IMG/VR virus record: IMGVR_UViG_3300027754_003462
Origin: a virus
DNA: 64,000 bases
Strand: one strand, 5' to 3'
Shown here piece by piece: positions 22,373-64,000 of this stretch. Position numbers and translations under genes: made by a program. A model generated the notes under the pieces. That model worked only from the letters and a program-made list of their open reading frames with translations, searched no databases and had not been told where the DNA came from. Each line of letters begins with the position of its first letter. The first letter of the stretch is position 1.

Positions 22373-23296
22373 ATGACAAGTCAAATCAACCCCAACAACA
22401 TCGACGGCCAATACCCCGTTGCGGGCCAGCCCAACAACACACAGGGCTTTAGAGATAATTTTACCAACATCAAAACCAATTTCCAAACAGCCGCCACAGA
22501 GATCACTGACTTGGAAAACAAAGGCGTATTCAAAGCCGCACTAACAGGCACCACACTTGACAACAACATGGCAGACAACTTAATATACGCCGTTAAATTA
22601 CAAGATGTCAGTTACACGTATGTGCAACAAACTGCTACCGCAGGTGCTATCCCTATTGATTACGCAGCTGGGCAATATCAACTGGTTGCGCCCACTGCCA
22701 ACGTTAGTTTGAGTTTTTCTAACTGGCCTGCCGCAGGATCTGAGGGCGAAGTGTACGTTGACGTTGTTGTGACCAATACTGCTTACACAGTCACCCTGCC
22801 TGCCGCAGTCAGTGTAGGCACAACAGGCATTCAAGGGTATGCAGCCAACGTTATCACCTTTGGTGCTGCCGGTACATATAGATTTGGGTTTAGTACTGCG
22901 GACGCAGGTACTACAATTGCCATCTATGATTTGAATCGTGCTCTCACTGCTTACACCAATTCATTTGGATATGTTGCCGGGGGTGGCGGCACTGTGACTC
23001 AGGCCACCAACAAGGCCACCGGTGTTACACTAAACAAACCCAGTGGTCAAATTACTATGAGCAATGCGGCCCTGGCTGCCGCTACTATTGTGAGTTTTAC
23101 TTTTACAAACAGCACAATTTCATCTACTGACTTGTTGGTAATCAATCATGTGAGTGGCGGTACTGTGGGGTCTTACACATTCACTGCCGCTTGTGGCTCG
23201 GGCTCGGCCACTGTGTATGTTCGTAATGCAACCTCAGGCTCACTCGGCGAAGCCATTGTGTTGCGTTATGCTGTGATTAAGGGCGCCATAAGTTAA
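22373..23296 (+). CDS. probable virion structural (tail/baseplate) protein
   Basis: YPVAGQPNNTQGFRDNF N-terminus, T/A/G-rich beta C-terminus; ATAAATA and AGGA upstream. Confidence 0.6.
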   Translation: MTSQINPNNIDGQYPVAGQPNNTQGFRDNFTNIKTNFQTAATEITDLENKGVFKAALTGTTLDNNMADNLIYAVKLQDVSYTYVQQTATAGAIPIDYAAGQYQLVAPTANVSLSFSNWPAAGSEGEVYVDVVVTNTAYTVTLPAAVSVGTTGIQGYAANVITFGAAGTYRFGFSTADAGTTIAIYDLNRALTAYTNSFGYVAGGGGTVTQATNKATGVTLNKPSGQITMSNAALAAATIVSFTFTNSTISSTDLLVINHVSGGTVGSYTFTAACGSGSATVYVRNATSGSLGEAIVLRYAVIKGAIS

Positions 23297-24405
23297 AGAT
23301 ACCTAGCATAAAATTCAGCCACTTCTGGAAATGTTTTTTGAAATGACTGATTTCTAAAGTTATCAAATTTTACAATTTCTTTTATCATACTTTCAATACC
23401 TATGGGATTTTCTTCCCAGTTCTTAGATATTAAATTCTTATAGTTGCTTGTTTGCATAGCATCAACATATTCTTGTGTGCAGTTATCTAGACTAAATTTT
23501 CCAAGTGCTAGATGATTTCCTTGACTAGTAGGGTCACCTTCACGGTTACTTGAAAAATTATCATCAGCCCAGATCTTTGATTGTTCTAGATAAAAGAGAT
23601 TAAAGATACTCACAGTTTCTTCAATGTGAAACATTACATTACTAGGAGCAGTGTGACGAATTTGCATCATGTTATCAACCACCTGATGCCAGGATGCTGG
23701 CCAACGAAGATATTCAAATCTTTCGCCAATGCCATCTAGACTTACGTTTAGTTTGACCAGATGAAATCTATCAATTATTTCATGATTTCTGACATGTATG
23801 GGTTGAGTACCATTTGTCTGAAAACACAAAGTCAATTGTTGTTTGACATTGGGCACATTGTTAGATAACCATTCGGCAATTTTCCAATATGCTTGCCCCA
23901 ACATGGTTTCGCCTCCAGCAAATACTAACATTTGCAAATTAGAAAGATCTAGTTGTTCCAGTGCTAAAATCACATTGTGATGTTGTTGTAGAGAACTTAT
24001 CGGTTGATTCCAACTGCCGTGCTCATTGAGATGCTTTTGCCAAAACGTACTTGATTGCGGCCCGCAAGATCTACATGCAAGATTACAACTTAGATCAAAT
24101 TTAAGATCTATTCTTGTTGGCCCCGACAGGTTGGTCTTTATGTCTTTTAATCCGGCATTCATTCCAGTACGAAAACTTTGTCCACCAACTGTCTCTATAG
24201 ATTTACAACTTTCGCATTCTGGTGCCCAAACATTTTGATTATTAAGTTGCCGGAGGGGTATAAATCCTGGATCGTTCCAAAAATTTGTTGTTATGTCAAT
24301 TGGAAATCTTGAATTGTGCAAACAACAATGCTGGGCAGTTGCGTATTTTTCTTTAAGATTTAATTCAAGACCGCCGTGTATCATTGAGCAGTAAGAGTCG
24401 GTCAT
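23293..24405 (-). CDS. radical SAM protein with N-terminal SPASM/twitch-like domain
   Basis: CNLACRSC, AGGET, TNGT, SLDG, FEYLRWPASW; N-terminal YC...HCC...CESC. Confidence 0.88.
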   Translation of the reverse strand: MTDSYCSMIHGGLELNLKEKYATAQHCCLHNSRFPIDITTNFWNDPGFIPLRQLNNQNVWAPECESCKSIETVGGQSFRTGMNAGLKDIKTNLSGPTRIDLKFDLSCNLACRSCGPQSSTFWQKHLNEHGSWNQPISSLQQHHNVILALEQLDLSNLQMLVFAGGETMLGQAYWKIAEWLSNNVPNVKQQLTLCFQTNGTQPIHVRNHEIIDRFHLVKLNVSLDGIGERFEYLRWPASWHQVVDNMMQIRHTAPSNVMFHIEETVSIFNLFYLEQSKIWADDNFSSNREGDPTSQGNHLALGKFSLDNCTQEYVDAMQTSNYKNLISKNWEENPIGIESMIKEIVKFDNFRNQSFQKTFPEVAEFYARYL

Positions 24406-25859
24406 GATTGTTTAATCTTTCCCAGCAGTTGTTTTAGTTTTGCGCTTTGCACATCTGCTGAAACTTTGCCTGTTTCCTGTGGGCCTTTTTCCCAAGCAGG
24501 AGTTCCTGTGGCTCGCTCCCATGGTGGGGATGATTCACTTGACTCTACAGTGTCGGCTGGCTTAACTTGACTGCGAGCCTTGATTGAGTCCATGATACTG
24601 CTTTGGGGTTTGTTGTAACCAGTTCCTTCGTCCCCACCTTCATCAGTAATGCGCATGGTTTCAATGTTGTATTCAAGGTCAATCTTTTGTCCCACACCTG
24701 TTGAACTACGACTCTTCATACATTGTATTTGATACTTGCCACGCTCTTTCATGGCACGACTTGTAAAGATACCAAACACATTGTCTGCTGTGTTGATCTT
24801 GGAAATACCGCCTGATATGTGCGAGTGATCAAATTCAATCTCTTCCACAGCACTACGATTCAACTGCGATGCTGTTACCATTAGCACTGCCAACTCTTTG
24901 GCCAAGTTACGCAGTTCTTCACTCACATACTTGTCTTTAACAAACAAGTCGTTGGGTGAGACTTTGGCACTCACAGGCATCAACAAATCCAAATAGTCAA
25001 TCATCACAAAGTCTACCTTCTTGCCTGTTTGAATTTGATACTCTTTCAAATAAGCACGAATGTCATTGATGTTGCTCTGGGCTGGCAATCCTTTCACTTG
25101 ATAGTTGCCTGACTTCTTGGCCACAAGTTTTACCTTGAGTTCAGTTGTATCAATATCTTTGCGAATGTCCTTGGTGCTCATGTTTGTTAACATAGCATCT
25201 GTTCGCAAACTTGTGAGTTCTTCTGATAGTTCAAGTGTGATATACACCCCACTCAGGCCTTGTTGTAACCAGTTGAGTGCAATGTTCATCATCACAAGAC
25301 TCTTACCCGAACCCGATCCTCCGGCAAAGATGTTGAGTTCACCACGACTGAATCCGCCATACAACAATCTATCCAGTTGTGGCCATCCTGTGCTTACTTG
25401 CCCGCCCGAGTTAAAGTATTTCTCAATGCGAGCCTTAGGATCAGCAAAGTAATCCGTGCCCATGTCTTTAGTAAGTGATATCTGTACTGCATCTTTGATA
25501 AGTTTCTCAACGGGTTCAAACTCGCCTTTCTCCAACAGGTCTGCTGATTTTAAAATTGCACGTTCAAGTTCTTGGCGCCGGGTAAATGCTTCAAACTCGC
25601 CCATGAACCAGTCAAAGTGGCCTTCGTTCAAGTCCGGCACTGGCGCAAGTTTAATGCCTGTAGTCGCAGAGATCTGTGACCTGTCGGGCATGGTCTTGTG
25701 TTTGTCAGTGTGTTCTTTAATGAACTCAGCCGCTGGTCTTAGACTTCGGTCAAAGTTCTGCGGATTGTAGATGTTTTGAACACGCACATAACTTGTGGCG
25801 TCTTCCAGCATCATTTCTAGAAATAGTCTTTGGACGTCAAGTCCGTATTCTTTTAACAT
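24402..25859 (-). CDS. replicative DNA helicase (gp41/DnaB-like)
   Basis: GGSGSGKS Walker A, ITLELS, MIDYLDL, TASQLNR, MKSR. Confidence 0.93.
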   Translation of the reverse strand: MLKEYGLDVQRLFLEMMLEDATSYVRVQNIYNPQNFDRSLRPAAEFIKEHTDKHKTMPDRSQISATTGIKLAPVPDLNEGHFDWFMGEFEAFTRRQELERAILKSADLLEKGEFEPVEKLIKDAVQISLTKDMGTDYFADPKARIEKYFNSGGQVSTGWPQLDRLLYGGFSRGELNIFAGGSGSGKSLVMMNIALNWLQQGLSGVYITLELSEELTSLRTDAMLTNMSTKDIRKDIDTTELKVKLVAKKSGNYQVKGLPAQSNINDIRAYLKEYQIQTGKKVDFVMIDYLDLLMPVSAKVSPNDLFVKDKYVSEELRNLAKELAVLMVTASQLNRSAVEEIEFDHSHISGGISKINTADNVFGIFTSRAMKERGKYQIQCMKSRSSTGVGQKIDLEYNIETMRITDEGGDEGTGYNKPQSSIMDSIKARSQVKPADTVESSESSPPWERATGTPAWEKGPQETGKVSADVQSAKLKQLLGKIKQS

Positions 25860-26971
25860 TGTATAATTGGTCCCTGGAGACTAAGTCTCCAATTTGTGTT
25901 TCTTATTTTATCTAGTTTTTCAAAATAATCAATCCATTCAGTGGATTGCGACGATCCTAGTTGTGATAACAGGCCGCTGGCACCTGGCAACTCTATAATA
26001 GATTGTAACACATCTTCAGCAGAATTATGTAACATACTGGGAAAATTTTTTAGTGATAAAACCTTTCCACCATACGATGATGGCTCAATTGCACGTACAA
26101 ATATTTGACTAGAATCTCCTTGATTTCCATTTTGGCAGTGATTTTTCCACCATTCAAAAAACTCAGGCATATTAAAAATATTATGTATTCCTACTATAGC
26201 ATTAACTTCAATTAAAATACAAGGACCGTCCAAATTTCTAAACCATTGAATATTTTTTTGTGTCTGGTCCCAGTTGGCCGGAAATCTAGTGTATTCAAAT
26301 GTTGTACCTATACCGTCAAGACTAAAAAATAACCGAATCCATTTTGCCTGGCACCATAGATCTATCAGTTCCTGATCGGGCAAAATAGTTCCGTTTGTAT
26401 TGTACGTCAATGAGACTTCGGGAAGGCGTCCAATGTTTTTGAGATGCATTAATATTTTTTTATTGTCAGGGTTTAAGAGTGGTTCCCCTCCAGTAAAATG
26501 CAACTGGCTTACTTCGCTTAGGTCTAAATCTTGCCAAACGGATTCAGGATTCTTTTTCAAACGGATTAGGGGAATTGTGTTATCAAACAAGTGATAGTGT
26601 GAATTCCAAGAACTACTATATCGAGAACTGCAAGATATACATGTGAGATTGCAAATTAAACTTTGTTCAAGATGTAATTTTTTAATTTTTGTTCCGGAGT
26701 CGTCCCAAATTGTTTCGTTTTGTGTGCGTTCTCTTTCGTTGGCAATGTGTCCTGACATTTTACAATATGATGAGCATTTGTCAGGCACACGGTCCTGGGA
26801 TTGGCGCCTAATAGATTGCAGATAGTCATGATCAAACATTACTTTTTCAACAGATTTTTTATTCTGCCAACAACACATAGAAATTTGAGTGCTACCTTGA
26901 GGAGTACTACCAATGAATAGTCCTTGATCATAGTATGGACAAAAACAATCACTGGCGTAGTCTTTTAACAA
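25853..26971 (-). CDS. radical SAM protein with N-terminal SPASM/twitch-like domain
   Basis: CNLTCISC, FTGGEPL, YNTNGT, FEYTRFPANW; TTG start overlapping the primase end. Confidence 0.88.
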   Translation of the reverse strand: MLKDYASDCFCPYYDQGLFIGSTPQGSTQISMCCWQNKKSVEKVMFDHDYLQSIRRQSQDRVPDKCSSYCKMSGHIANERERTQNETIWDDSGTKIKKLHLEQSLICNLTCISCSSRYSSSWNSHYHLFDNTIPLIRLKKNPESVWQDLDLSEVSQLHFTGGEPLLNPDNKKILMHLKNIGRLPEVSLTYNTNGTILPDQELIDLWCQAKWIRLFFSLDGIGTTFEYTRFPANWDQTQKNIQWFRNLDGPCILIEVNAIVGIHNIFNMPEFFEWWKNHCQNGNQGDSSQIFVRAIEPSSYGGKVLSLKNFPSMLHNSAEDVLQSIIELPGASGLLSQLGSSQSTEWIDYFEKLDKIRNTNWRLSLQGPIIQC

Positions 26972-31932: not shown

Positions 31933-33398
31933 GCAATCTTCATCCATTCTAGTTTTTCTGCTGAGAAAGGATAGTTGGCTTCCCGGTAGAACTGTTTGCG
32001 TTTGGTCAGGTGTCGCTTGGCAAACTTGCAGGTACTGGTAATGTCCCAAATTTGCACATGATCCTTGTCCTCTGCTTTTCGGATACCTCTACCAATCGAC
32101 TGGATAACCCTAACAAAACTCTTGCCAGGCTCGATGAGCACCAGATTAAAGATTCGCGGAATGTTAATTCCAACTGCCGCCACACCGTAAGTGGCCACAA
32201 TGATTTTGTCTGTTGAGTCTGCAATTTGATCATATTCTTCCTGTCTTTTTGTTCCTTTGGTTGCGCCCGACACAAACACTGCTTTGTCTCCTAGACGTGC
32301 AACCAATTCATTGCCAGCGGCAACTCTGTCTACCAGTACCAGGGTGTTGCCTGTTTCGTTTACCCGACGGATCAGGTCGGCCATGGTGTCCAATCGACCC
32401 GACTCTTCCAACAAGTACTTGAGTTCACTTTGATACTCTTTGTATTCCACATGGTCCACCAATTGCACAATGTTCACGTGACAGTTGGCCAACACGCCTT
32501 GTTGCTGTAGTTCGTTGGCACTGAGTCGGCCAACTACAGGACCAAGCCCCACCAGCAGAGCCTGACTTTCAAACTTTTCTTTGGGAATAGTTCCGGTCAA
32601 ACCCCACCGAATTGGCACTCTAGCCATCACACCAGTCAGCAGGGTTTTGAGTGCGTCTGCCTTGGCCATGTGTACTTCGTCTACAATAACGCATACCACA
32701 TCTTCCAAGAACTCGTCAATGGTCACTTTGCCTGTGCCTGCCTTGGTGTTCTTCAACAAGATGTTTAGACTTTGCCAAGTACAAATAGTGTGTTGACGTC
32801 CATATTCTTTTCTATCTCCAAAATACACACCAACATCTTGTTGCATGTTGATGTAGTCTTTTTCTGTTTGTGTCACTAGACTCTTGTTGGGCACAATCAC
32901 AATCGATCGTCCATATGGTGTGACAGCATTTGACAAGGCCGCTGTCATAATAGTCTTACCTGCGCCTGTGGCCACTTCTTGTAGGCACTGTGGATTGGCC
33001 AGGAAGTTGTTCACAATGTCAACTTGATAGTCTCGCATGACAATGGGTTCACCCACAGCAGGGTGTCCTTTGGGCCACGTGATGTGTGCAAACGAGTCTT
33101 CACGTACCTGTTCAAACTCAAACGAGGTAGAGTAGTCTCTTTGATCATCTATCTCAATGTCGTAATCAAACTTTTCAAGGATGGGAACAATCTCTGGCAA
33201 CAAGTTTGTGTATGTACTGCCGCCCAGTTGAAAGTATGCAACCTTGCCGTCCCAGCGTCCCAGTCGCACTGCTGGCATGTAACGTGCGGCCGGGTTTTCG
33301 TATTTGAATGCCGTGACCAAGGCCTTGCGAACGTCAAGATCAAGCCCTTCCAGTTTGATGTTTACTTCGTCTTTAATCTGTATTATGCATCGTTTCAT
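31929..33398 (-). CDS. uvsW: SF2 DNA helicase UvsW
   Basis: WDGK, ATGAGKT, DEVH, GLTGT, QSIGRGIR; start MKRCII. Confidence 0.92.
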   Translation of the reverse strand: MKRCIIQIKDEVNIKLEGLDLDVRKALVTAFKYENPAARYMPAVRLGRWDGKVAYFQLGGSTYTNLLPEIVPILEKFDYDIEIDDQRDYSTSFEFEQVREDSFAHITWPKGHPAVGEPIVMRDYQVDIVNNFLANPQCLQEVATGAGKTIMTAALSNAVTPYGRSIVIVPNKSLVTQTEKDYINMQQDVGVYFGDRKEYGRQHTICTWQSLNILLKNTKAGTGKVTIDEFLEDVVCVIVDEVHMAKADALKTLLTGVMARVPIRWGLTGTIPKEKFESQALLVGLGPVVGRLSANELQQQGVLANCHVNIVQLVDHVEYKEYQSELKYLLEESGRLDTMADLIRRVNETGNTLVLVDRVAAGNELVARLGDKAVFVSGATKGTKRQEEYDQIADSTDKIIVATYGVAAVGINIPRIFNLVLIEPGKSFVRVIQSIGRGIRKAEDKDHVQIWDITSTCKFAKRHLTKRKQFYREANYPFSAEKLEWMKIA

Positions 33399-34581
33399 CT
33401 TGTATAGTATACACAGTCCTAGGGCAAAATGCAAGCCTTGCCTGCTCAATTTCTTCCGCTAACTCTGTCAAGACCCCTAGTTGTGCTTGAACAATAGACA
33501 TATTTAATTTTCGATGTGCAGTAAGTTTTGAGATGAACTGGATGCCAGTGTCTCGATGCGTTTGATTGAAAATACTTTTTTGTATCCCCAAAATATATTC
33601 GTGAATTATTGCATTTTGTTTAGTGGTAATGCCGTACTTTAATTTTTCAGCATGTAAAAATTCAATCAATTTATCTTTTTCATGATCTTTGAGTATAGAC
33701 CAATTTAGTCCTTGTGTGTCTGAACTAGTCAATGAACTAATCTGTATGGGTATTAATTTTTTGTTTGCCCAGTCTATTGTTTGGTACACATGACTGATAT
33801 TCAAAATTTGAATTATAAATTTAAAGTACATGCTTGACTTTGGTAAATGTTGTCTAAGTGTATCTACATTGGTAGAAAATTGTTGCCAGGTAGCAGGATA
33901 TCGCATAAAGTCATATGCATCCTTGACTCCGTCTACACTGATGGATATTTCTAAATTGACAATTTGCTTGAGCCTGCTCAACAAGGAAGATGTCAATACA
34001 GATGCATTGGTCACAATCCTACAACCCAATTGCCGCTGTATTATTTTGTCCAGCATTATTAAGTTCTTTTTAAAAATAAAGAATTCGCCCCCGATGAGAC
34101 TTACACTTTCTAAATTTGGCAATTGATCAATTGTGGCCAGTGCAATGTCAGTATTGTCTTGTACTACGACAGAGGTGTCTGATAATCCGGCATTGTTTCT
34201 TTCATTGGCCAAATAGGTACTGGATTTTTCGTCGCACATGTAACAACCAAGATTGCATGTGTTACTGAAAAACACATCTAGTAGTTTAATATCCAGTTTA
34301 TCGCTAGCCCAGGGCTTTTGTAGCAGTTGTTTTCGTATACTGGTAGTGCCAATTTTATCATTTTTTGAACATGCATCGCAACCCGGAACCGGTTCTATGC
34401 CGTTGATTTTGTTGTCACGGAGTTGGGTCATTTCTTCTCCGTGTAAAAAATCTTTCAATGATTCTGATTTGGTTTGAATCCTATATACACATCCTGGTTT
34501 GAATCCTACCTGATTTGTTTTGTAATTTGATTCAATTCTTAATGTGGTAAAAGGTGCTGTACAAAATATCGGGTTGTGCAT
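33373..34581 (-). CDS. radical SAM protein with N-terminal SPASM/twitch-like domain
   Basis: FCTAPF...PGC...CDAC; CNLGCYMC; IGGEF; SVDG; MRYPATW; start MHNPIF after CTAAATA. Confidence 0.88.
   Translation of the reverse strand: MHNPIFCTAPFTTLRIESNYKTNQVGFKPGCVYRIQTKSESLKDFLHGEEMTQLRDNKINGIEPVPGCDACSKNDKIGTTSIRKQLLQKPWASDKLDIKLLDVFFSNTCNLGCYMCDEKSSTYLANERNNAGLSDTSVVVQDNTDIALATIDQLPNLESVSLIGGEFFIFKKNLIMLDKIIQRQLGCRIVTNASVLTSSLLSRLKQIVNLEISISVDGVKDAYDFMRYPATWQQFSTNVDTLRQHLPKSSMYFKFIIQILNISHVYQTIDWANKKLIPIQISSLTSSDTQGLNWSILKDHEKDKLIEFLHAEKLKYGITTKQNAIIHEYILGIQKSIFNQTHRDTGIQFISKLTAHRKLNMSIVQAQLGVLTELAEEIEQARLAFCPRTVYTIQDETMHNTD
33406..33434 (-). promoter_or_regulatory. sigma70-like promoter TTGCAT-N17-TATACT
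   Basis: Upstream of uvsW, inside the 3' end of the radical SAM gene. Confidence 0.55.
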
Positions 34582-34599
34582 AGAAAAATATTTAGTTGT

Positions 34600-34632
34600 C
34601 AAAAAGACAGGTACCTTTTTAAGGGTACCTGC
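34600..34632 (-). terminator. rho-independent terminator
   Basis: CAGGTACC...GGTACCTG stem followed by TCTTTTT on the minus strand. Confidence 0.75.
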
Positions 34633-34680
34633 CATAAAACCCGGGCCGGAGCCAACCAATGCCCGAGGAAACTTTAAAAG

Positions 34681-55763: not shown

Positions 55764-56514
55764 CCAATATTCTTTCTGCAAACATTTTGTGTCCTTGTGG
55801 GCCAGCATGCATGTAATCTCTGGCATACTCTACTTCTTCTCGACTGCGAGCAAAATAATCGTGTGCGTCGTAGGTCAAACAGGGTATTCCTAAATTTTGA
55901 CAAAGAGCCTGAACTGCCAATTTGTTCTTTGCGTTATTTAAGTCTTGATTACCTTCATTTGTCATCCAGTGCTTGAGAATCACATCAGCACCGAACTCAC
56001 CGTCAGTGGTATTGGGCATCATTGTATGCATTTCAGGTTTGCCTGTTGCTCTAATAATATCAAATCTGTTTTTAGGTGGAGCGGCCATGACAACCAACTC
56101 CGGGCGTAACACTGGCAACCAGAACTTTGCCAACATAAAACAAGTGTCTGCGCTGGTACCGCCCCAGGCCAAGTTGTATGATGTCATGTTGAGTTCATTG
56201 CCCAATATGGTCGGCCAGATTGTGTCAAGTGGCAGTCCAATGCCCACTGTGTAACTACAGCCCAGTGCAACCACCGACTTGACTCCAAACTCAAATTCTT
56301 GGCATCTGAATCCATACTTGTTTATCTTGTATGTGATTGCATTGGGCTTGTCCCAACCTTTGGCCTGAAAATATTCACGGTGTGCAGGATCTTGTATCAT
56401 GCGCTCGTAACTTTCTTTAGTGTCTGTTGGCAGCCAATCTAGTGTTCGTCCGGCACATGATATCCCCGGGTGCCACGGTGGTGCCAATGGCAGTGAATCT
56501 TTAAACGAATCCAT
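55738..56514 (-). CDS. SGNH/GDSL-like hydrolase-fold protein
   Basis: ALGCSYT, NLAWGG, RDYMHAG (DxxH). Confidence 0.6.
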   Translation of the reverse strand: MDSFKDSLPLAPPWHPGISCAGRTLDWLPTDTKESYERMIQDPAHREYFQAKGWDKPNAITYKINKYGFRCQEFEFGVKSVVALGCSYTVGIGLPLDTIWPTILGNELNMTSYNLAWGGTSADTCFMLAKFWLPVLRPELVVMAAPPKNRFDIIRATGKPEMHTMMPNTTDGEFGADVILKHWMTNEGNQDLNNAKNKLAVQALCQNLGIPCLTYDAHDYFARSREEVEYARDYMHAGPQGHKMFAERILDDWRKKYA

Positions 56515-57658
56515 GTTTGATTCCTTCTGCAAGTTCTGACCATAGGTCAACAAAATGCGTTGTTTTGTTTAGTTCAGTTTCTATTTTTTGATGAAACTTC
56601 AACACCTCAGGTTTATACTTGTTGATATCTTTGACATAAGTGTTATCCTGTAACTGCTTGCGATAGTTTTGTAGCGTGTGTATTCCTAAATTAATGTGGT
56701 GGCCCCAGCGTTCTGTCACTTGATCAATTTGAGACATTGCCTGCAATCGCAGTTGTTCAGGCAGTCGTCTTGCATCTAGATCATAAGGATGCATGAGTTC
56801 GCACCAGTAAATTTCTAAAGATCGGGCTGTACAGAATTCATAATATGAAATCAAATCAAATGCATTGTATATGCTGTAGGCCGGGTGTGCTTTGATTGTT
56901 TGTGAATCTTGATTCATAGTGTCAAGGTTGGCAGTTAGTGTTGTCCATTGTGCTCCGTTGCGAACATATTCAAACTTGTCAGCCTCAACATTGTCAAAAC
57001 TCACCATCCACTCCACACGTGGCCAAGTCTTGAGTTTTTGGTATATAGGGTTTGTGACAATGTTCACACTGAGATTGGTTGTGACCATGACATTGACTTT
57101 GTTGGGATCAAGGTGATCTAAAAAATCAGCCAGGCCTTTTTGCAATAGTGGTTCTCCGCCACCTAGACTGAGTCCGTGTATGTTATGGCCTTGTGTTTTT
57201 GCAAGTGCAATCAAGTCCTCATGCTCATTTTTAACATGATTGATAGGTATTTTCTTGACGCTTTGCCAGGCTGTGCTGGTTTCAGGATTACAATACACAC
57301 AAGATAAGTTACACAAATTACTCCAGTTGACCACAAGATGTTGTAATTCAAAAAAATCTAAATCTTTGTCAATCTCTGTTAGTGTACTTTGGTCAGCATG
57401 GCGCACCGTCCTGCCACTTGAACCTGTTGTTTCTTCAAGACTTTTGCACCAACTGCATCCTGGGTGCCATTCACCACGAGCCATGGTTTCTCTCATGCTT
57501 GTTAATATAGGGCCTCGAATGATGTTTTGTATTGTGTCTTTTTTGTTGTTTCCCACCATCTCTACACAATGGAAACAAGGACTAACATGCCCGGATTGAT
57601 CAATGTTCAAACTGGTCCAAGGCGCTGAGCAAAATGTAGGGCTGTCAGTTATTTGCAT
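56501..57658 (-). CDS. radical SAM protein with N-terminal SPASM/twitch-like domain
   Basis: FCSAPW...G.VSPC...CSWC; CNLSCVYC; GGEPL; FEYVR.GA.W. Confidence 0.9.
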   Translation of the reverse strand: MQITDSPTFCSAPWTSLNIDQSGHVSPCFHCVEMVGNNKKDTIQNIIRGPILTSMRETMARGEWHPGCSWCKSLEETTGSSGRTVRHADQSTLTEIDKDLDFFELQHLVVNWSNLCNLSCVYCNPETSTAWQSVKKIPINHVKNEHEDLIALAKTQGHNIHGLSLGGGEPLLQKGLADFLDHLDPNKVNVMVTTNLSVNIVTNPIYQKLKTWPRVEWMVSFDNVEADKFEYVRNGAQWTTLTANLDTMNQDSQTIKAHPAYSIYNAFDLISYYEFCTARSLEIYWCELMHPYDLDARRLPEQLRLQAMSQIDQVTERWGHHINLGIHTLQNYRKQLQDNTYVKDINKYKPEVLKFHQKIETELNKTTHFVDLWSELAEGIKHGFV

Positions 57659-58788
57659 AGGAATTCCAATTCTGGCCATAGTCGTACAAAATCTCCCGAT
57701 TTGTCTGGATGGAACACAGTTTCGTTGTCATGAATATGTTTACGAAAGTTTTGTTGTATCTCAGGATTGGGCTCTGATTGACTGTACTTGTCTCTTGCTT
57801 GATCAAAGAACTGTCGCTCTGCTGGGGTAGCAATGTCCATCTCATAGAATCGATCGATTTCCCGGCTGGCCAACTCAGCCACTTCGGGTCCATGTTGGAA
57901 CGGATCAAGATAATCTGGTTGGAATAAATTTTGCCACAGCACTGTGGTGCCAGTATCTTGGGCAAACTGCCTAAACTCACAAAGTCGTGTGGCACTGTAA
58001 ATATTGTATACAGCGTGTATGCCGCCCCAATGGCCATTGTTCTTCATGAGATATTTAACTGTTTGTATATTGTGTTGCAACAACTTCCAGTCAGCACCGT
58101 GACGTACATATTCTAGTCTATCACCCGTGTTGTCAAAACTCATGGACCAGCCTACATTACGTCTCTGGGTAAGTTTTTTAAATATTTTATTTTTTTCCAG
58201 ATCAACATTCATATTTGTGATCAGTGTTACTATGGCACTTTCAGGAATGACATCTAGCAAGCGTTCGTTTTCGGGCAATAATAATGGTTCGCCTCCGACC
58301 AAGGCCACTTCGTGTATGTGTTCATGATGTTGCTCAAGAAAGTCACACACTTGTTCATAGTAGGGTCTTGTGCCTGATCGGAATGGCACGTTTTTTATAC
58401 TAGCCCATTTACTAGAACAACCGGGCCCACAGTAGTTACAACTCAAGTTACAGGTTGTGTTCCAACGCACATCAAATATCACAGGATAGTGATATCGGTC
58501 ACCTGCTAGGGCATAATCAAAGTTGGGATTCACACGGTTGTGCCAGGCACGTTCCGAGTCTGCGCCAAAGCGTTCGGCTTTTACACAATTACTGCAATAC
58601 TCATGCGGCTGACCTTGTGCTAGGCTGGCACGTATTTCTGCCATTAAATCAGTGTTTAAGATTTCTTCAATGGTGTTGGCATTGAGGTTACCCAACATGT
58701 TGGGATTGCCTGCGCAACAGGTTTTGACATTGCCTTGGGGATTGATGTGCAGGCCACGCCAGGGTGCCGCACAGTAGAAATTGCTCAT
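57649..58788 (-). CDS. radical SAM protein with N-terminal SPASM/twitch-like domain
   Basis: YCAAPW...G.VKTCC...CSNC; CNLSCNYC; GGEPL; LEYVRHGADW. Confidence 0.9.
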   Translation of the reverse strand: MSNFYCAAPWRGLHINPQGNVKTCCAGNPNMLGNLNANTIEEILNTDLMAEIRASLAQGQPHEYCSNCVKAERFGADSERAWHNRVNPNFDYALAGDRYHYPVIFDVRWNTTCNLSCNYCGPGCSSKWASIKNVPFRSGTRPYYEQVCDFLEQHHEHIHEVALVGGEPLLLPENERLLDVIPESAIVTLITNMNVDLEKNKIFKKLTQRRNVGWSMSFDNTGDRLEYVRHGADWKLLQHNIQTVKYLMKNNGHWGGIHAVYNIYSATRLCEFRQFAQDTGTTVLWQNLFQPDYLDPFQHGPEVAELASREIDRFYEMDIATPAERQFFDQARDKYSQSEPNPEIQQNFRKHIHDNETVFHPDKSGDFVRLWPELEFLCK

Positions 58789-58823: not shown

Positions 58824-58901
58824 TTACACCGGGCTGTAGGGATTACGATGTCGATCGTATCCATCGTCGGGCGGTAATACCGGGTACTCGTTATTCCGCA
58901 T
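58824..58901 (-). CDS. possible 25 aa peptide MRNNEYPVLPPDDGYDRHRNPYSPV
   Basis: Small ORF overlapping the nuclease stop and filling most of the gap; no clear RBS. Confidence 0.35.
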   Translation of the reverse strand: MRNNEYPVLPPDDGYDRHRNPYSPV

Positions 58902-59709
58902 TGCGACCACACCGGGCACGTTTGGCATTGGTCAATGCACCAAAATCCACTGGCCATTCTTTGCCAGGTTGTACTTCCGTAACACCTGGGGGAAACTTAT
59001 AGTCAACCCCTGCTACTTTTTCTATTTCTGCAATGGGCCGGCGGAACACAGTCAAGTCGTTGCCCAGGTTAACATAGGGCTTGGTATGTGGGAATACCCA
59101 ACCTGCGGCCTGCTTGGTTGTGTTGTTGATAACAATCTTGTAGAAGCCATGTGGTACAATAACACCGTTGCCAATTGTGGGGTCACCGGCACCATACAAT
59201 GCACCTACATAAATTGTGAAAGGTTGGTTTAGTTGCACCGTCCATCCGCGAACTGCTGTTTCCAACAGTTTCCAAATACCACGATTTAATGATCCGTGTT
59301 GCGGATACATGTTGGTCATCAAGAAACTTTCATATTCCACTTGTGCTGACCAACTCAAGTCACCGTCAGGAGCGGCATGTCCTTTGTCGTAGCCTGTGCC
59401 TGCATAGTCATCTGGTCTGGCACCTGTGCCACCTAGGCTTTGGTCTGCTACAAATGCATTAGTGCGCGGAAAGCATCCTAGTGCGTTTTGTGGTAGTAGT
59501 GTATATGCCACATAAGCAGGAATCTTAACAGGTGCATCATATGCCACAAGATACGCTTCACGGCAAATTGCTTGTACCGGACGATTGACTATGGCAAATC
59601 CATAAGGTGAGTGTACTTGACATGCCTGTACAGGATTAGGAGCACGTTGATCCCAGGCTTGTGCTAGTCCTGCTGTGAGTAGCAAGACCACGGTTAATAT
59701 TTTTTTCAT
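58891..59709 (-). CDS. secreted DNA/RNA non-specific endonuclease (NucA-like, His-Me finger)
   Basis: Signal peptide; GYDKGH, F.MTNM.PQ...LNRG.W..LE, VP.GFYKI. Confidence 0.92.
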   Translation of the reverse strand: MKKILTVVLLLTAGLAQAWDQRAPNPVQACQVHSPYGFAIVNRPVQAICREAYLVAYDAPVKIPAYVAYTLLPQNALGCFPRTNAFVADQSLGGTGARPDDYAGTGYDKGHAAPDGDLSWSAQVEYESFLMTNMYPQHGSLNRGIWKLLETAVRGWTVQLNQPFTIYVGALYGAGDPTIGNGVIVPHGFYKIVINNTTKQAAGWVFPHTKPYVNLGNDLTVFRRPIAEIEKVAGVDYKFPPGVTEVQPGKEWPVDFGALTNAKRARCGRNAE

Positions 59710-59741: not shown

Positions 59742-60122
59742 TTAGTAACCGTTGAAGGGTTTTACTGGGCTGGTGTGATTGACCGAGGCTGGTTCTAAAC
59801 TGTTGGGGGTACTTATCTGTACCTTTTTAACAGGCAGGCCGGCCATTTTCAATGCTTGATCAATAACTGGCTCTACTGAGGCATTGAATCCAGCAATCAC
59901 AGCATCTTCGCCAAATGCGGCTTGTGCTGACCAAGCAGGCATGTTGGGTATGGGATCTTGTGTGCCGGCATCACTTCTGGCTCGAGCCATGGCCACACCC
60001 AGACGATATATTTGATAAGGGTCACTGGACTGCACCCCTGGTAACACAAACACATGATTCATGGGATCTGCCAGTTCAGGAGGCAATGTTGCTTCTTCAG
60101 TGATAAATTCTCGTGCTCTCAT
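59742..60122 (-). CDS. probable head-internal protein (paralog A)
   Basis: MRAREFITE N-terminus; ends VNHTSPVKPFNGY. Confidence 0.65.
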   Translation of the reverse strand: MRAREFITEEATLPPELADPMNHVFVLPGVQSSDPYQIYRLGVAMARARSDAGTQDPIPNMPAWSAQAAFGEDAVIAGFNASVEPVIDQALKMAGLPVKKVQISTPNSLEPASVNHTSPVKPFNGY

Positions 60123-60490
60123 CAGTAGCCTTTAAATGCTTCAATGGGACTAGTGGTGTTTACCGCAGGATGTTCTTCACTGTCAAAATCGCCGTGATTT
60201 AGATCTTCATAATCTGCCCCAGCTGCCTTGTATGCTTGTATGAGCATTCGTTGCTCAACTTCAGTATAAGGGCTTGCTGTGCGTTTTTTTCCTACCCAAC
60301 TCTTGCCATCCATCTTGATTGGTTTATTAGATCCGTCGGCCATGGCCACGGCCATCATCACACGATTGAGAGTATAGTCACTGTTGGCTTTTTCACTGTC
60401 ACTAAACAAATTAAGGCCCACCGTGGCACTTTGATTACGGGTGCTTAATTTTCCCTGACGCATTTCAGTAACAAACTCTTGTGCTCGCAC
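60122..60490 (-). CDS. probable head-internal protein (paralog B)
   Basis: MRAQEFVTE N-terminus (GTG start); ends VNTTSPIEAFKGY. Confidence 0.65.
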   Translation of the reverse strand: MRAQEFVTEMRQGKLSTRNQSATVGLNLFSDSEKANSDYTLNRVMMAVAMADGSNKPIKMDGKSWVGKKRTASPYTEVEQRMLIQAYKAAGADYEDLNHGDFDSEEHPAVNTTSPIEAFKGY

Positions 60491-60492
60491 GA

Positions 60493-60822
60493 TTAACTCG
60501 AAGTTGAGCCGTACACACCACTTGTGCCGGATGTGGCAGTACCTAGTGCTGTGGCTGTGAATGCATTGCCTGTAACAATGTTAAGGTAGTTGCCGGCTCC
60601 GATATAGTACTGTTGCACGGTATTACCTGGTACCACAATGGCATTGGCATACAAGTTGCCTGTGGGCATGGTGGTGTTCACCGGCACACCATTGGCCTGT
60701 ATGTATTGAGTTTGTGTCAAACTAACTTGGAATGTAACGTTGGCCAACGTGGTAGCAATTTCTACCTTGTCTGTAGTCCAAGCCACGTTGGATACAGCGT
60801 TGACAACTTGAACAGCAGGCAT
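60493..60822 (-). CDS. probable virion structural protein
   Basis: 109 aa rich in T/N/V/G, beta-like. Confidence 0.6.
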   Translation of the reverse strand: MPAVQVVNAVSNVAWTTDKVEIATTLANVTFQVSLTQTQYIQANGVPVNTTMPTGNLYANAIVVPGNTVQQYYIGAGNYLNIVTGNAFTATALGTATSGTSGVYGSTSS

Positions 60823-60992
60823 TATTTTGTGTCCTTGGGTGGTTCACTCACAACTGGTTGAAACAAGTTGCGTGTTTGATCCAACACACCGGGAATGTAC
60901 ACTGGTTGTTGTTTGTAACCGCCAGTGGCAGGACTATGTGGATTGATAACAGGGGGTGTTGTCAATGCTGTGGTAAAAGGTTGTGTGGTCAT
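60822..60992 (-). CDS. small Pro/Thr-rich hypothetical protein (56 aa, MTTQPF...)
   Basis: ATG 1 nt after the upstream stop, GGAG RBS, TAATG coupling downstream. Confidence 0.6.
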   Translation of the reverse strand: MTTQPFTTALTTPPVINPHSPATGGYKQQPVYIPGVLDQTRNLFQPVVSEPPKDTK

Positions 60993-60993
60993 A

Positions 60994-63942
60994 TTATACT
61001 CCGTATTGTCCTTTGTATTGTTTCCAAAGATTAGCAGTGGAAGCAAGAATGCCTTCGTCAATATCTTTTTTCTTGACAGCATTTGTGCCTGGAATTTTTT
61101 CTCCAACTTTGACGTCATTATCTGCAAGGCCTTTTGTAAACAAGTTGCCTTCTTCAGTTTTTTCTTCGTCAACTTCTTTTTTCTTGACACCGGCCATTTC
61201 CATCATTCTATGAAGTTCTTGATCATCTTCGTATGTGTGTTGACGCTCGTCCTGGCTGGCAATCACAGGAATAGTTGTTTGTCCAGTTGATTTAGGACCG
61301 TTTAATCCACCCGAATATTCAAAACTATCTTGTGCAGTTTCAGTGTTGGTAGGATAATCAGGTGAATTTTGGCTTACAACGTCATCGCCATAGGCTTCGT
61401 CAACTGTTTCGCAGCCGCAGTCTTCTTGACCACATGCATCGCACACTTCGTCGTCGTGGCCATGATCATCATCAACTGCTTGACGTATTTGATCAGCAAT
61501 GCCTTCTGCACCGTGTACTTCTATTTCGGCGCCAGGTGCTTGGCCGCCCATGTCATGATCGCCGCCTAGGCCGGCATTTTTCAACAACTCGCCCAGTTTC
61601 ATGGCATCGTCATCAGTGGCAGTCACAGTCACGCTCCGACTTGGGCCGCCTGTGGCGTCAGTGTTCATGCTCATGCTGATATTCATGCTTTCAGAGATCA
61701 TGCTTTCTAGTTCACGATTCATGGAGTCATAAATGCCTTGTCCAAACCCGAAGCCACTTGATGCTGTGGGAGTGTCAGTTCCGCCTTGCTCTTTGACTTT
61801 CTTTTTCTTCTCGTCGTATTCAATGTCTTTGGTGACTTTCTTGCCGGCTTTTTCTGCTTTGGTATCTTCGGATCCACGCTTCTTGCCGTGAATGCCATCT
61901 TTCTTTTTCTCATCATACTCAATGTCTTTGGCAACCTTGCGGCCTGCACGTTCAGCACGGTTGTCACGGGTAGAAGTTTTTTCTTCGCCCATGGCCATTT
62001 CGTCGTCCTCTTGGTTCTGCATGTAGTCGTCCACAGCAGTCATCATGCTTTCGATCTTGGCCAACTTGGATTGTACCCATTCTGGCAGGTTGTCATTGTC
62101 GCCCAGGATCTTTTCCAGGGCTTGTGCATGACGCACCACAGTTTTAATACTGTCTTTGGCCATGTCGCCTTCTTGATCATACTCACCACGATCTATGATA
62201 TCAAGATCACCTTCCGCCATGTCTTGTTTTAAGGCTTGCACAACAGCAGTTAACAAATCATTGAATGTTAATTTGGGATTGACCAAGGCACCGGGAACAA
62301 TAGTTTTGTCGCCGTATACAAGGTCAACGTCGTCAAAATAAAGTGGAGAATTTCTTGGCAAACCGGCGTTTTTTTCTAACCAGTTTGTAAGTTTCTTTAC
62401 ATCCTGAGTTTCTTTGTAGTAACCAGCGACGTTTCCAAGATCGGCTTCGTTGGTTTTGCGACCGCCTTTGTGTTTGGTAGCCTTGCTGGTCACACGCTCA
62501 GGGCCTTTGTCAGCACCTTTTGGACGACCGCGTCCGCGCTTTTCACCTGCGGCTGGCTCATCACTATCAGCACCTACTGAATAACCTGTGTTGGGATCAA
62601 CTCTGCGTGTTACTCTGCGGCCGCCAGGAACTTCTTGTGTGTCATGCTTGTCACCGTGTGTGACATCGCCAACTTTGCGTTTGCGCATTTCATCACGGGC
62701 GCTGTCCACAGTCGGAAAGCCTTCGTCAGCCACTTGCTTGTTGCCGCCTTTGCGCAACATAGCAAAGTCGTTGGCATCTAGTTTGCCGTTCTTGTTCATG
62801 TCAATTTTCTTTTGCTTGGGACTAAGTGCGCTTTTGATGGCTTCAGCAGCCACGTCACCCAACATCTCATCAACTTCTTTCTTGGCGCCGGCAATCTTGT
62901 CGGCAAAAGTAATTTTGTCTTTGGGAGGTGCAAGTTTAGCAAATGACTTTTGTTTAGGTGTCATTGGCGCACCGTCTTCTTCAGCCATGGCAGCATTTCT
63001 CATTTTTGCTGGCATCTGTGATGCTAACTTTTGAGCATGCATTTTATCGTTCATATTGGCTTTATGGACACTGGTTTTATTGGATAAATCTGCATAGTGT
63101 TGGCTTGCTTTATTGTACCCAGGAATCAATGCCATTTCAGGATCATCACTTTGTTTAACCAATTTACTTTTTATACGGTCAACTTCATTATCAAATTTTA
63201 CACTACGTCGGTTTGCCGCATTTCTAGTTCTGTTTAGCAACTCAGAACTTAGTTCATCAAGTTCTTGTGGCTTCTTGCCAGTTTGTGGCATGCCCATCTT
63301 GCGTTGCAAGTCTTTGCGCATGGATTGATCGTCACCATGGCCCAGGCGGTTCATCACAGCGCCGCCAACTTTCTTGACTGCACTGCCAACTCGCTTGGCC
63401 ACATCACCCATGCCCTCGTCCATGTCTTTTTGTTTTTTACGCAAGGCACTATTGAACTTGTCATCTAGTCTATTGTATTTGTCAGATGCTTTTTGATCTC
63501 GGCGATCGTCAGCATCAGCATATTTCATACCTGCCTTGTCCCTTGCACGTTTTAATAGGTCAGTACTGAGTTCATTGACTTGGTCTTTATCATACTTGTC
63601 ATACTTGGCACGAACTGGATCCAGTGCCTTGCCTTCACGTCCAGCCTTGGCCAGGGCCTGCATGCCTTCTTTGCCATACTTCTCATAGCCTTTGGCCGCA
63701 CGGCTCATGCCTTCTTCTTCTAGTTTGCCAGATTTTTTCATCTTTTGGAACTGAGCACCCGCCACACGCTCACCAGCGGCCTTGCTACCGTATTCTTTGC
63801 CGGCTTTTTTTGCCAAGGCATCAAACCCAGTGGTCTTGTTGTTGTGCTTGCCCATGTCACGTTCATTTAACTGACCGTGTGTGGTTTCTGGCTTCTCGCG
63901 AATTGCGTTTAGTTTGTCGTTGAGATTGTAAAAAAATGTCAT
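60994..63942 (-). CDS. large modular protein, probable prohead-core/internal polyprotein
   Basis: 982 aa, highly charged, about 15 modules separated by [LIVM]-x-E; EF-hand-like and AT-hook-like motifs; GAGGA RBS. Confidence 0.65.
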   Translation of the reverse strand: MTFFYNLNDKLNAIREKPETTHGQLNERDMGKHNNKTTGFDALAKKAGKEYGSKAAGERVAGAQFQKMKKSGKLEEEGMSRAAKGYEKYGKEGMQALAKAGREGKALDPVRAKYDKYDKDQVNELSTDLLKRARDKAGMKYADADDRRDQKASDKYNRLDDKFNSALRKKQKDMDEGMGDVAKRVGSAVKKVGGAVMNRLGHGDDQSMRKDLQRKMGMPQTGKKPQELDELSSELLNRTRNAANRRSVKFDNEVDRIKSKLVKQSDDPEMALIPGYNKASQHYADLSNKTSVHKANMNDKMHAQKLASQMPAKMRNAAMAEEDGAPMTPKQKSFAKLAPPKDKITFADKIAGAKKEVDEMLGDVAAEAIKSALSPKQKKIDMNKNGKLDANDFAMLRKGGNKQVADEGFPTVDSARDEMRKRKVGDVTHGDKHDTQEVPGGRRVTRRVDPNTGYSVGADSDEPAAGEKRGRGRPKGADKGPERVTSKATKHKGGRKTNEADLGNVAGYYKETQDVKKLTNWLEKNAGLPRNSPLYFDDVDLVYGDKTIVPGALVNPKLTFNDLLTAVVQALKQDMAEGDLDIIDRGEYDQEGDMAKDSIKTVVRHAQALEKILGDNDNLPEWVQSKLAKIESMMTAVDDYMQNQEDDEMAMGEEKTSTRDNRAERAGRKVAKDIEYDEKKKDGIHGKKRGSEDTKAEKAGKKVTKDIEYDEKKKKVKEQGGTDTPTASSGFGFGQGIYDSMNRELESMISESMNISMSMNTDATGGPSRSVTVTATDDDAMKLGELLKNAGLGGDHDMGGQAPGAEIEVHGAEGIADQIRQAVDDDHGHDDEVCDACGQEDCGCETVDEAYGDDVVSQNSPDYPTNTETAQDSFEYSGGLNGPKSTGQTTIPVIASQDERQHTYEDDQELHRMMEMAGVKKKEVDEEKTEEGNLFTKGLADNDVKVGEKIPGTNAVKKKDIDEGILASTANLWKQYKGQYGV
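61800..61960. repeat. internal coding duplication (AE.AG.KV.KDIEYDEKKK x2)
   Basis: Two near-identical 20 aa units in the 982 aa ORF. Confidence 0.75.
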
Positions 63943-63946
63943 TGTA

Positions 63947-64000
63947 TTATCCTCTTGGGTTTGCGCCAGTGGCTGGGCGGGGTTGACGCTTGATATTGGT
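63947..64000 (-). CDS. C-terminal fragment of an upstream gene (...TNIKRQPRPATGANPRG)
   Basis: Open frame to the window edge, with stop 4 nt before the next ATG. Confidence 0.5.
   Translation of the reverse strand, partial: TNIKRQPRPATGANPRG

Follow-up and report, generated by a model that had tools for sequence, protein, structure and literature searches.

What kind of protein is built of many small units strung together in one chain, with a hydrophobic-x-Glu motif at most of the joints, and what would a phage use it for? The question is raised by a gene at the end of a stretch of 64,000 nucleotides (the window) from the IMG/VR virus record IMGVR_UViG_3300027754_003462. The window comes from an uncultured T4-like jumbo phage. 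It encodes UvsX, a gp32-like single-stranded DNA-binding protein, a ribonucleotide reductase, a primase/helicase, five radical SAM proteins and a large terminase (TerL) with 52% identity to the large terminase of Pseudomonas phage PA5oct. A first-pass annotation read the gene as a head-packaged polyprotein whose modules end at prohead-protease sites and are gained and lost as cassettes. Here we describe the family of this polyprotein and find that interpretation partly supported. Several independent units within one open reading frame (ORF) are separately gained, lost and moved. As judged from sequence comparisons, the protein probably enters the capsid and is cut up into many mini-proteins.

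The ORF exists as annotated. It encodes 982 amino acids (aa) on the minus strand, with an ATG at 63942, a stop codon at 60994-60996 and a GAGGA ribosome-binding site 7-8 nt upstream of the ATG. The product begins MTFFYNLNDKLNAIREKPETTHGQLNE, is rich in K, D, G, A and E, and has a net charge close to neutral, with acidic and basic modules alternating. No Pfam or PHROG family matched the whole protein above threshold, and at the DNA level the gene had no match in the phage collection. In tblastn only one 61-aa stretch was matched, in two cyanophages. With a threshold of E < 1e-3, an exhaustive profile-free search recovered 2846 cluster representatives, of which 269 passed E < 1e-30; the similarity of each representative to the query is spread over one to eight separate stretches. 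None of the 3081 proteins listed by a word-index search is named; they come from JGI, ENA and NCBI metagenomes, and some lie on contigs of up to 334 kb. Full-length members are 550-1143 aa long. They share a nearly invariant N-terminus (MTFFY(D/N)LNKKL...) and end in one of a few amphipathic tails, such as SIFALTNQWKAYKG after ...KKVEE and GILASTANLWKQYKGQYGV after ...DIDE. Shorter proteins are mostly fragments at contig ends and have no bearing on split forms.

Alignment with the 11 closest homologs shows that the family is not simply collinear. The modules, numbered M0 to M16 from the N-terminus (Table 1), have the boundaries proposed in the first-pass annotation, and these match clean presence/absence indels of the orthologs. 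Four blocks behave in this way (a slash marks the boundary): aa 30-78 (LNERD/ ... LEEEG/), aa 119-176 (KDQVNE ... KDMDE), aa 231-321, which are absent or unrelated, and aa 500-577 (TNE/ADLG ... DMAE/GDL). Inserts specific to single homologs are found between VADEG and KKDMDEG in P0168 and between MISE and KKLSE in P0160. The backbone is mostly collinear and consists of about 10 small modules, each found in 130-200 of the 204 homologs. Optional or replaceable cassettes undergo insertion, deletion, duplication and, now and then, relocation. M9 is 99-100% identical in four other homologs, three of which, P0198, P0200 and P0201, are only 55-56% identical to the query overall. It follows KTNE in the query and the four others; in P0222 it follows GVSE, which is the M5 slot of the query, and it ends in MAE in both slots. 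M1-like cassettes occupy three slots across the homologs, with other slots used in P0049 and P0096, and some family members carry a DUF3008 cassette. An ESM Atlas look-up of M9 returned only unnamed viral clusters, below the lead threshold.

The ends of these cassettes are not placed at random. A set of 215 distinct inserts was compiled from 204 full-length homologs, each compared with its nearest neighbours; to be counted, an indel had to be pure, 12 aa or longer and bordered by well-aligned sequence. Both junctions fall within one residue of the cut position of an [LIVM]xE motif (hereafter Phi-x-E) in 14% of the indels against 0.7% under random placement, and within three residues in 20% against 2.4%. 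The control motifs [LIVM]xD and [LIVM]xK are not enriched at the junctions of the same indels. Both junctions lie directly after a Glu in 43 of the 215 (20%; null 1.5%). The P3 position of these junction Glu is [LIVM] in 53% of cases, compared with a background of 24.6% (p = 9e-9), and P1' is mostly G, E, S or A. The preference for Phi-x-E is specific and strong, yet it concerns a minority of events. The proposal that cassettes are exchanged by recombination at the cleavage-site codons holds in so far as indels do fall at Phi-x-E; recombination at these codons is not separable from selection that retains sites at the junctions.

Sites of this type are also retained at both ends of the protein. 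All but one of the 204 homologs (203) have an [LI]xE motif 13-35 residues downstream of the FFY start, against 17% of random 25-aa windows, although the sequence between start and site diverges. In the leader (M0) F3, F4, L7, N8 and L11 are invariant and L25-N26-E27 is conserved to at least 90%, so that M0 is a candidate targeting propeptide with the site at its end. At the other end, 191 of 204 homologs have an [LIVM]xE within the last 40 aa, before a C-terminal tail that is most commonly 14-19 aa long. In an alignment of 111 sequences E27, E359, E653, E718, E751, E849 and E963 are conserved to at least 90%, and E176 and E577 to 86%. An AlphaFold2 (AF2) model built from this alignment is of low confidence (mean pLDDT 56, pTM 0.28) and resembles beads on a string: there is no large domain, and low-confidence linkers separate the elements. 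Short stretches were modelled with confidence: two helical hairpins (40-70 and 81-113), a beta unit (427-446), two helices within 590-647, a hairpin and helix (754-789) and the helix at the C-terminus. Of the 19 Phi-x-E sites, ten are in linkers with pLDDT < 50 or directly next to them. The sites are conserved and likely to be accessible.

The individual cues of the first-pass annotation fared unevenly. All the Phi-x-E module ends that it listed are present (LNE27, LEE76, VNE124, MDE176, LDE230, MAE321, VDE359, MAE577, MGE653, VKE718, ISE751, VDE849, VDE926 and IDE963), as are the variants VADE407 and TNE499. The pairs KDQVNE/KDMDE and ELSTDLL/ELSSELL, the AT-hook-like KRGRGRPKG (aa 468-476) and the EF-hand-like DMNKNGKLDAND (aa 381-392) were likewise found. 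The 11/13 direct repeat said to flank M9 is present and in frame. Its occurrence is at the level of chance, with an expectation of about 140 such in-frame pairs in codon-shuffled sequence, and the repeat was rejected as significant by itself. A stronger repeat had been missed. It matches at 24 of 26 nt, encodes VKKK(E/D)(V/I)DE, and its two copies are spaced by exactly one 37-codon module (aa 927-963); it was matched in 0 of 200 shuffles. Some modules had also been described as AT-richer than the backbone. The optional cassettes do have a low GC content at third codon positions (GC3 0.29-0.38). AT-richness was rejected as a mark of acquisition because GC3 is equally low, at 0.26-0.30, in the C-terminal modules M14-M16 (aa 850-982).

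The modules recur beyond the slots of their own family, as small stand-alone phage genes. M10 forms the C-terminal part of widespread stand-alone phage proteins of 87-180 aa. These proteins start with MKTFKQLREE in cyanophage S-WAM2 and with MKSFRRHIKE or MKSFKDLRE in many metagenomic phages. Such starts resemble the capsid-targeting sequence (CTS) of T4, MKTYQEFIAE, ten residues that are removed by the prohead protease gp21 (PMC8442874, PMC9026906). M9 is found in small proteins of 188-261 aa (P0277, P0278), which start with MKAQKYEEGVTE and MKAKEFIP. The polyprotein therefore fuses units that other T4-like phages encode as small proteins of their own with CTS-like tags.

The genomic neighbourhood is cargo-like. 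The gene order could be read in a relative of 87% nucleotide identity (L002), in which P0160 is the ortholog of the polyprotein. It runs from a gp13-like gene through sheath, tube, a tube paralog, a gp4-like head completion gene, a homing endonuclease, a 179-aa helical protein and a 201-aa protein to the polyprotein. Small ORFs, a secreted nuclease, a radical SAM gene and TerL follow. About 40 kb away on this contig the portal, a 73-aa protein, a 280-aa acidic protein, a gp21-like protease (Peptidase_S77, 86 bits; L006, 10789-11421), a 362-aa scaffold and the major capsid protein (MCP) form a T4-like head module. Another phage contig from the same bin likewise encodes a protease of the gp21 type together with a homolog of the polyprotein. 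In the window the final 55 nt (63946..64000, minus) encode the C-terminus of the gene preceding the polyprotein, ending ...TNIKRQPRPATGANPRG before the stop. This gene is the ortholog of the 201-aa protein, which in L002 starts with MKPFAKYLAE and has ATAAATA, a T4-late-like promoter core, 18 nt ahead of its start. Two genes downstream of the polyprotein, of 122 and 126 aa, start with MRA and CTS-like sequences (Table 1) and are likely separately encoded internal head proteins.

Phage PA5oct has a matching gene order, comprising a gp4-like gene, a small gene, gp282, gp281 and TerL. Its gp282 (200 aa) is homologous to the upstream neighbour of the polyprotein (E 2e-11). At the position of the polyprotein stands gp281 (498 aa), which resembles the family in its LRLAGV, KLAGI and LKNAGL motifs, its Cys cluster and its ...LNKFKG tail. 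Both gp281 and gp282 are annotated as virion proteins detected by ESI-MS/MS (electrospray tandem mass spectrometry).

Motifs of this kind also link the polyprotein to the scaffold. The scaffolds of the relative, PA5oct and 7t3 end in ...IDLKRLAGL, ...EELRRLAGIK and ...LERNAGIHKK, respectively. The polyprotein has two copies of the corresponding motif Lxx(L/M)xxAG(I/L/V), KLGELLKNAGL and ELHRMMEMAGV. Family members average 1.67 copies, against 0.006 in shuffled sequences, and a few members end with it. The motif may touch the same prohead partner as that of the scaffold. A predicted complex of the relative's MCP with the RRMMEMAG segment scored 0.28 against a mark of 0.34 and speaks neither for nor against binding. 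The polyprotein was rejected as the main scaffold because a separate, canonical 362-aa scaffold (phrog_10922) adjoins the protease in the relative. Tested as a gp22-like scaffold, it has neither the PHROG match nor the head-module position, and only the short motif is common to both. Taken together, the CTS-like neighbours, the T4-type protease of the relative, the scaffold-like motif and the positional match in PA5oct support a head-internal protein that would be processed by gp21.

We hold with moderate confidence that the polyprotein is a capsid-internal cargo, cut by a gp21-type protease into fragments that are kept in the head or injected; packaging and cleavage are what we infer. The protein would be co-assembled into the prohead core by way of its leader, its two scaffold-like motifs or both. 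The gp21-type protease would then cut after the Glu of the Phi-x-E sites. About 15 peptides and mini-proteins would be freed, among them the AT-hook, EF-hand-like and Cys-cluster pieces, and some of these, at the least, would remain on the DNA and reach the host as the T4 internal proteins do. The string would stay cleavable after any insertion or loss because each cassette brings its own 3' site, and the cargo could diversify quickly. More tentatively, the family might form a combinatorial array of about 15 cleavage-delimited slots, filled from a shared pool of mini-proteins that are swapped between phages and between slots and injected as peptides. Members of such a pool would be peptides that bind metal or Ca, DNA binders and possibly effectors against host defence. 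One protease together with one packaging signal would then deliver a constantly changing set. It is more speculative that the Cys-cluster cassettes (CDACGQEDCGC, and CPACDCSPCEC in relatives) could be substrates of the five twitch-domain radical SAM enzymes of the phage, which would make part of the string like RiPPs (ribosomally synthesized and post-translationally modified peptides).

Internal head proteins that are processed by a protease are known in T4 and in phiKZ-like phages, and are the route by which anti-defence and takeover proteins are pre-loaded. Full-text literature searches under polyprotein with prohead, internal proteins or jumbo phage gave no account of a protein such as this one. 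If the reading is true, one ORF that strings many units between protease sites would represent a new organisation of cargo and a new mode of its evolution, the more so if an exchange of units between slots and lineages can be demonstrated. It would explain why the family is so large (thousands of metagenomic clusters at 50% identity), with ends that stay recognisable and a middle that changes freely. The family would further provide a catalogue of small, independently folding phage peptides for defence-system screens, and a natural multi-cargo packaging scaffold for the engineering of T4-like capsids.

Several observations weigh against this reading. Only about 14-22% of the distinct indels have Phi-x-E at both ends, and other junction types recur (TGKKP / ...DKI / TFADK, and the RMMEMAG motif). 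The P1 Glu are only modestly better conserved than other Glu (0.67 versus 0.54, p = 0.03), and some sites lie inside predicted helices (359, 785, 915). A conserved [LI]xE is not reached before residue 27, and the N-terminus does not resemble the T4 CTS of about 10 residues. The protease gene was read only in a relative, in which the polyprotein is about 40 kb from the head module. PA5oct gp281 is a positional analogue and not a demonstrated member, because its profile comparison with the polyprotein family was not significant. Raw motif counting was rejected as evidence. The query has 19 [LIVM]xE against 13.2 +/- 3.2 in shuffled sequences (p = 0.05) and 8 [LI]xE against 6.1, and the 204 full-length homologs average 16.4 against 10.8. 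Counts alone are no evidence because the reversed control Ex[LIVM] shows an identical excess.

An excess that is equal in both directions would follow from composition and helix periodicity. It would suit a virion or ejection protein built as a flexible chain of several modules, which remains essentially whole or sheds only its leader and tail. The Glu-rich junctions would then be linkers that tolerate indels, and Phi-D-E-G a linker motif and not a protease site. The majority of indel junctions do lie away from Phi-x-E, and head proteins of giant phages with conforming motifs are sometimes left uncut (PMC5694885). We nevertheless consider an intact protein unlikely. It does not account for the hydrophobic P3 preference at after-Glu junctions or for the negative D and K controls. 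Inserted cassettes regularly carry a Phi-x-E end of their own, and the terminal sites are almost universal while their surroundings diverge.

The cleaved cargo that we favour has to be distinguished from a protein that is loaded and cut to be discarded. As a sacrificial auxiliary scaffold or core protein, the polyprotein would have its fragments expelled like those of T4 gp22, gp67 and gp68, and the cassettes, instead of being delivered as effectors, would serve as filler to adjust the volume or charge of the core in a jumbo head. The two copies of the C-terminal motif of the scaffold, with their invariant residues, fit such a role, as do the mostly disordered or helical structure and the near-neutral charge with its alternating acidic and basic modules. 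The true PA5oct scaffold went undetected by mass spectrometry, as a degraded core protein would; gp281, at the position of the polyprotein, was found in virions. Strong sequence conservation of the backbone modules speaks against filler: it covers the AT-hook, the EF-hand-like loop and the Cys cluster as well as M10. Modules that are independent CTS-like proteins in other phages point to functions after release, and a canonical 362-aa scaffold already adjoins the protease. On balance a sacrificial role appears improbable. A protein that works outside the virion, such as a DNA-binding or host-takeover factor of the infected cell encoded among structural genes by chance, could bind DNA through its AT-hook-like and basic repeats and would match no structural family, as is the case, but is highly improbable given the location between tail tube/gp4-like genes and TerL, the late-promoter-like ATAAATA ahead in the relative, the CTS-like flanking genes and the PA5oct virion proteins at the same positions.

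Table 1. Features of the polyprotein gene and of other genes in the window.
Feature	Position	Strand	Description
Polyprotein gene	60994..63942	minus	982 aa and stop
M0, aa 1-27	63862..63942	minus	conserved leader MTFFYNLNDKL...QLNE
M1, aa 28-76	63715..63861	minus	optional helical-hairpin cassette (pLDDT ~90), bounds LNERD/ and LEEEG/
M3, aa 125-176	63415..63570	minus	optional cassette between KDQVNE and KDMDE; 29/204 homologs
M5, aa 231-321	62980..63252	minus	hypervariable slot LDE/ ... MAE/; GC3 0.29
M6-M7, aa 322-407	62722..62979	minus	conserved backbone ...TFADKIAGAKKEVDE / MLGDVAAEA...DMNKNGKLDANDF...VADE
M8, aa 408-499	62446..62721	minus	small beta unit (427-446) and AT-hook-like GEKRGRGRPKG; TNE at end
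M9, aa 500-577	62212..62445	minus	optional cassette TNE/ADLG...DMAE/GDL; 6/204 homologs (query counted)
11/13 direct repeat	right copy 62202..62214, left copy 62436-62448	minus	in-frame; right copy GAAGGTGATCTTG
M10, aa 578-653	61984..62211	minus	two-helix module GEYDQEGDMAK...NLPEWVQSKL...DYMQNQ
M11, aa 654-718	61789..61983	minus	tandem 33-aa repeat (RAERAGRKVAKDIEYDEKKK...); copy number differs between homologs
M13, aa 752-849	61396..61689	minus	beta-hairpin and helix with KLGELLKNAGL, then Cys cluster CDACGQEDCGC; VDE at end
M14, aa 850-926	61165..61395	minus	ELHRMMEMAGV (907-917), second scaffold-motif copy; KKKEVDE at end
M15, aa 927-963	61054..61164	minus	37-aa cassette flanked by 24/26-nt direct repeat; 20/204 homologs
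24/26-nt direct repeat	61053-61078 and 61164-61189		encodes VKKK(E/D)(V/I)DE
M16, aa 964-982	60997..61053	minus	C-terminal amphipathic helix GILASTANLWKQYKGQYGV following IDE
Small ORF	60822-60992	minus	~56 aa, start MTTQPF
Small ORF	60493-60822	minus	109 aa
Neighbour gene	60122..60490	minus	122 aa; start MRAQEFVTE, T4-CTS-like; C-terminus ...SPIEAFKGY common to next gene
Neighbour gene	59742..60122	minus	126 aa; start MRAREFITE, CTS-like
Nuclease gene	58891-59709	minus	272 aa, Endonuclease_NS-type
Radical SAM gene	57649-58788	minus	NF033640
Radical SAM gene	56501-57679	minus	NF033640
Radical SAM gene	33373-34659	minus	NF033640
Radical SAM gene	25853-26971	minus	NF033640
Radical SAM gene	23293-24405	minus	NF033640

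The modules differ in how strictly they are kept. The M5 slot holds unrelated cassettes or is empty in other homologs, and the version of the query occurs in 3 of 204, the query counted. In the conserved M6-M7 region the EF-hand/dockerin-like loop matches Dockerin_1 at E 0.0088, below the cut-off, which the homolog P0267 does reach. The AT-hook-like segment of M8 is invariant or almost so from R469 to P474. In the KLGELLKNAGL motif of M13 (782-792) L783, L787, A790 and G791 are invariant.

The genes around the polyprotein have features of their own. The two MRA-starting neighbours are paralogous, and their shared tail ...SP(V/I)(K/E)(P/A)F(N/K)GY recalls the polyprotein end ...YKGQYGV. The two small ORFs directly past the polyprotein are about 90% conserved in L002 and belong to no family; the 109-aa product is rich in T, N, V and A and likely beta-rich. 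The Endonuclease_NS-type nuclease has a signal-peptide-like N-terminus (MKKILTVVLLLTAGLAQA), lies within the block between the cargo genes and TerL and is kept in both relatives. All five radical SAM genes match NCBIfam NF033640 (N-terminal twitch-domain) at 172-212 bits against a cut-off of 170. Two of them lie 2.2-4.5 kb downstream of the polyprotein, where another relative (L001) has none.

Further observations concern the relatives. The 179-aa helical protein of L002 (8830-9369; phrog_16202) occupies the place expected for a small terminase (TerS), with the gp4-like gene on one side and the cargo block on the other; its ortholog falls just past the end of the window. If this protein is TerS, TerS and TerL are parted by a variable cargo block in this clade. 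The 280-aa protein between portal and protease in the head module of the relative (L006, 9943-10785) is extremely acidic, with runs of D, E, M and G (DMDDMDDMDDGDMADDMGDDDMG), and is probably a gp67/gp68-like core component. In PA5oct the scaffold homolog (L008, 84724-85830) is annotated as hypothetical and lacks the ESI-MS/MS note that its neighbours carry, and the label 'prohead assembly (scaffolding) protein' is given to the gene of the gp21-like protease. These two annotations look swapped or incomplete.

How does the polyprotein compare with known head proteins? Core proteins and internal proteins of T4 are processed after Glu, the internal proteins are diverse anti-restriction cargo with only the CTS in common, and giant-phage propeptides have several redundant sites (PMC3012670, PMC5694885, PMC9026906, PMC10052503). 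As in T4, the clade has a T4-type protease, and the cuts would follow the Glu of a short hydrophobic-x motif. The neighbours and the stand-alone versions of M9 and M10 start with CTS-like peptides of 9-12 residues that end in Phi-x-E. Like the T4 internal proteins the predicted cargo is a diverse and fast-evolving set (PMC3012670, PMC8442874, PMC9026906). T4 internal proteins, however, are encoded by separate small genes and are cut once each, whereas here a single ORF of 982 aa joins about 15-16 units, and most joints carry a site. The polyprotein also has a leader of 27 aa (MTFFYNLN...) that is not T4-CTS-like.

A second comparison is offered by phiKZ, 201phi2-1 and SPN3US, in which the propeptides of inner-body and ejection proteins receive several prohead-protease cuts at S/A/G-x-E or A-x-E, a redundancy that is thought to aid the clearance of fragments (PMC5694885, PMC9026906, PMC10052503). 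These too are jumbo-phage head proteins with several after-Glu cleavage motifs. Their sites, in contrast, are confined to N-terminal propeptides of single mature proteins, which form paralog families and not strings of cassettes; further differences are the lineage of the phages and the preference at P3. With the scaffolds of PA5oct/Rak2-like T4-type jumbo phages the polyprotein shares the Lxx(L/R)xxAG(I/L) motif and a helical, charged character, and both are predicted protease substrates. It differs from them in having no overall homology, in lying 40 kb away and in being far more variable. A parallel in working principle only, with unrelated proteins, proteases and biology, may be drawn with the precursors of PatE-type cyanobactins, which are RiPPs, and with prohormone and neuropeptide precursors of animals. 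In these, conserved sequences that the protease recognises enclose each of several variable cassettes on one chain, and cassettes can be swapped without change in the processing machinery.

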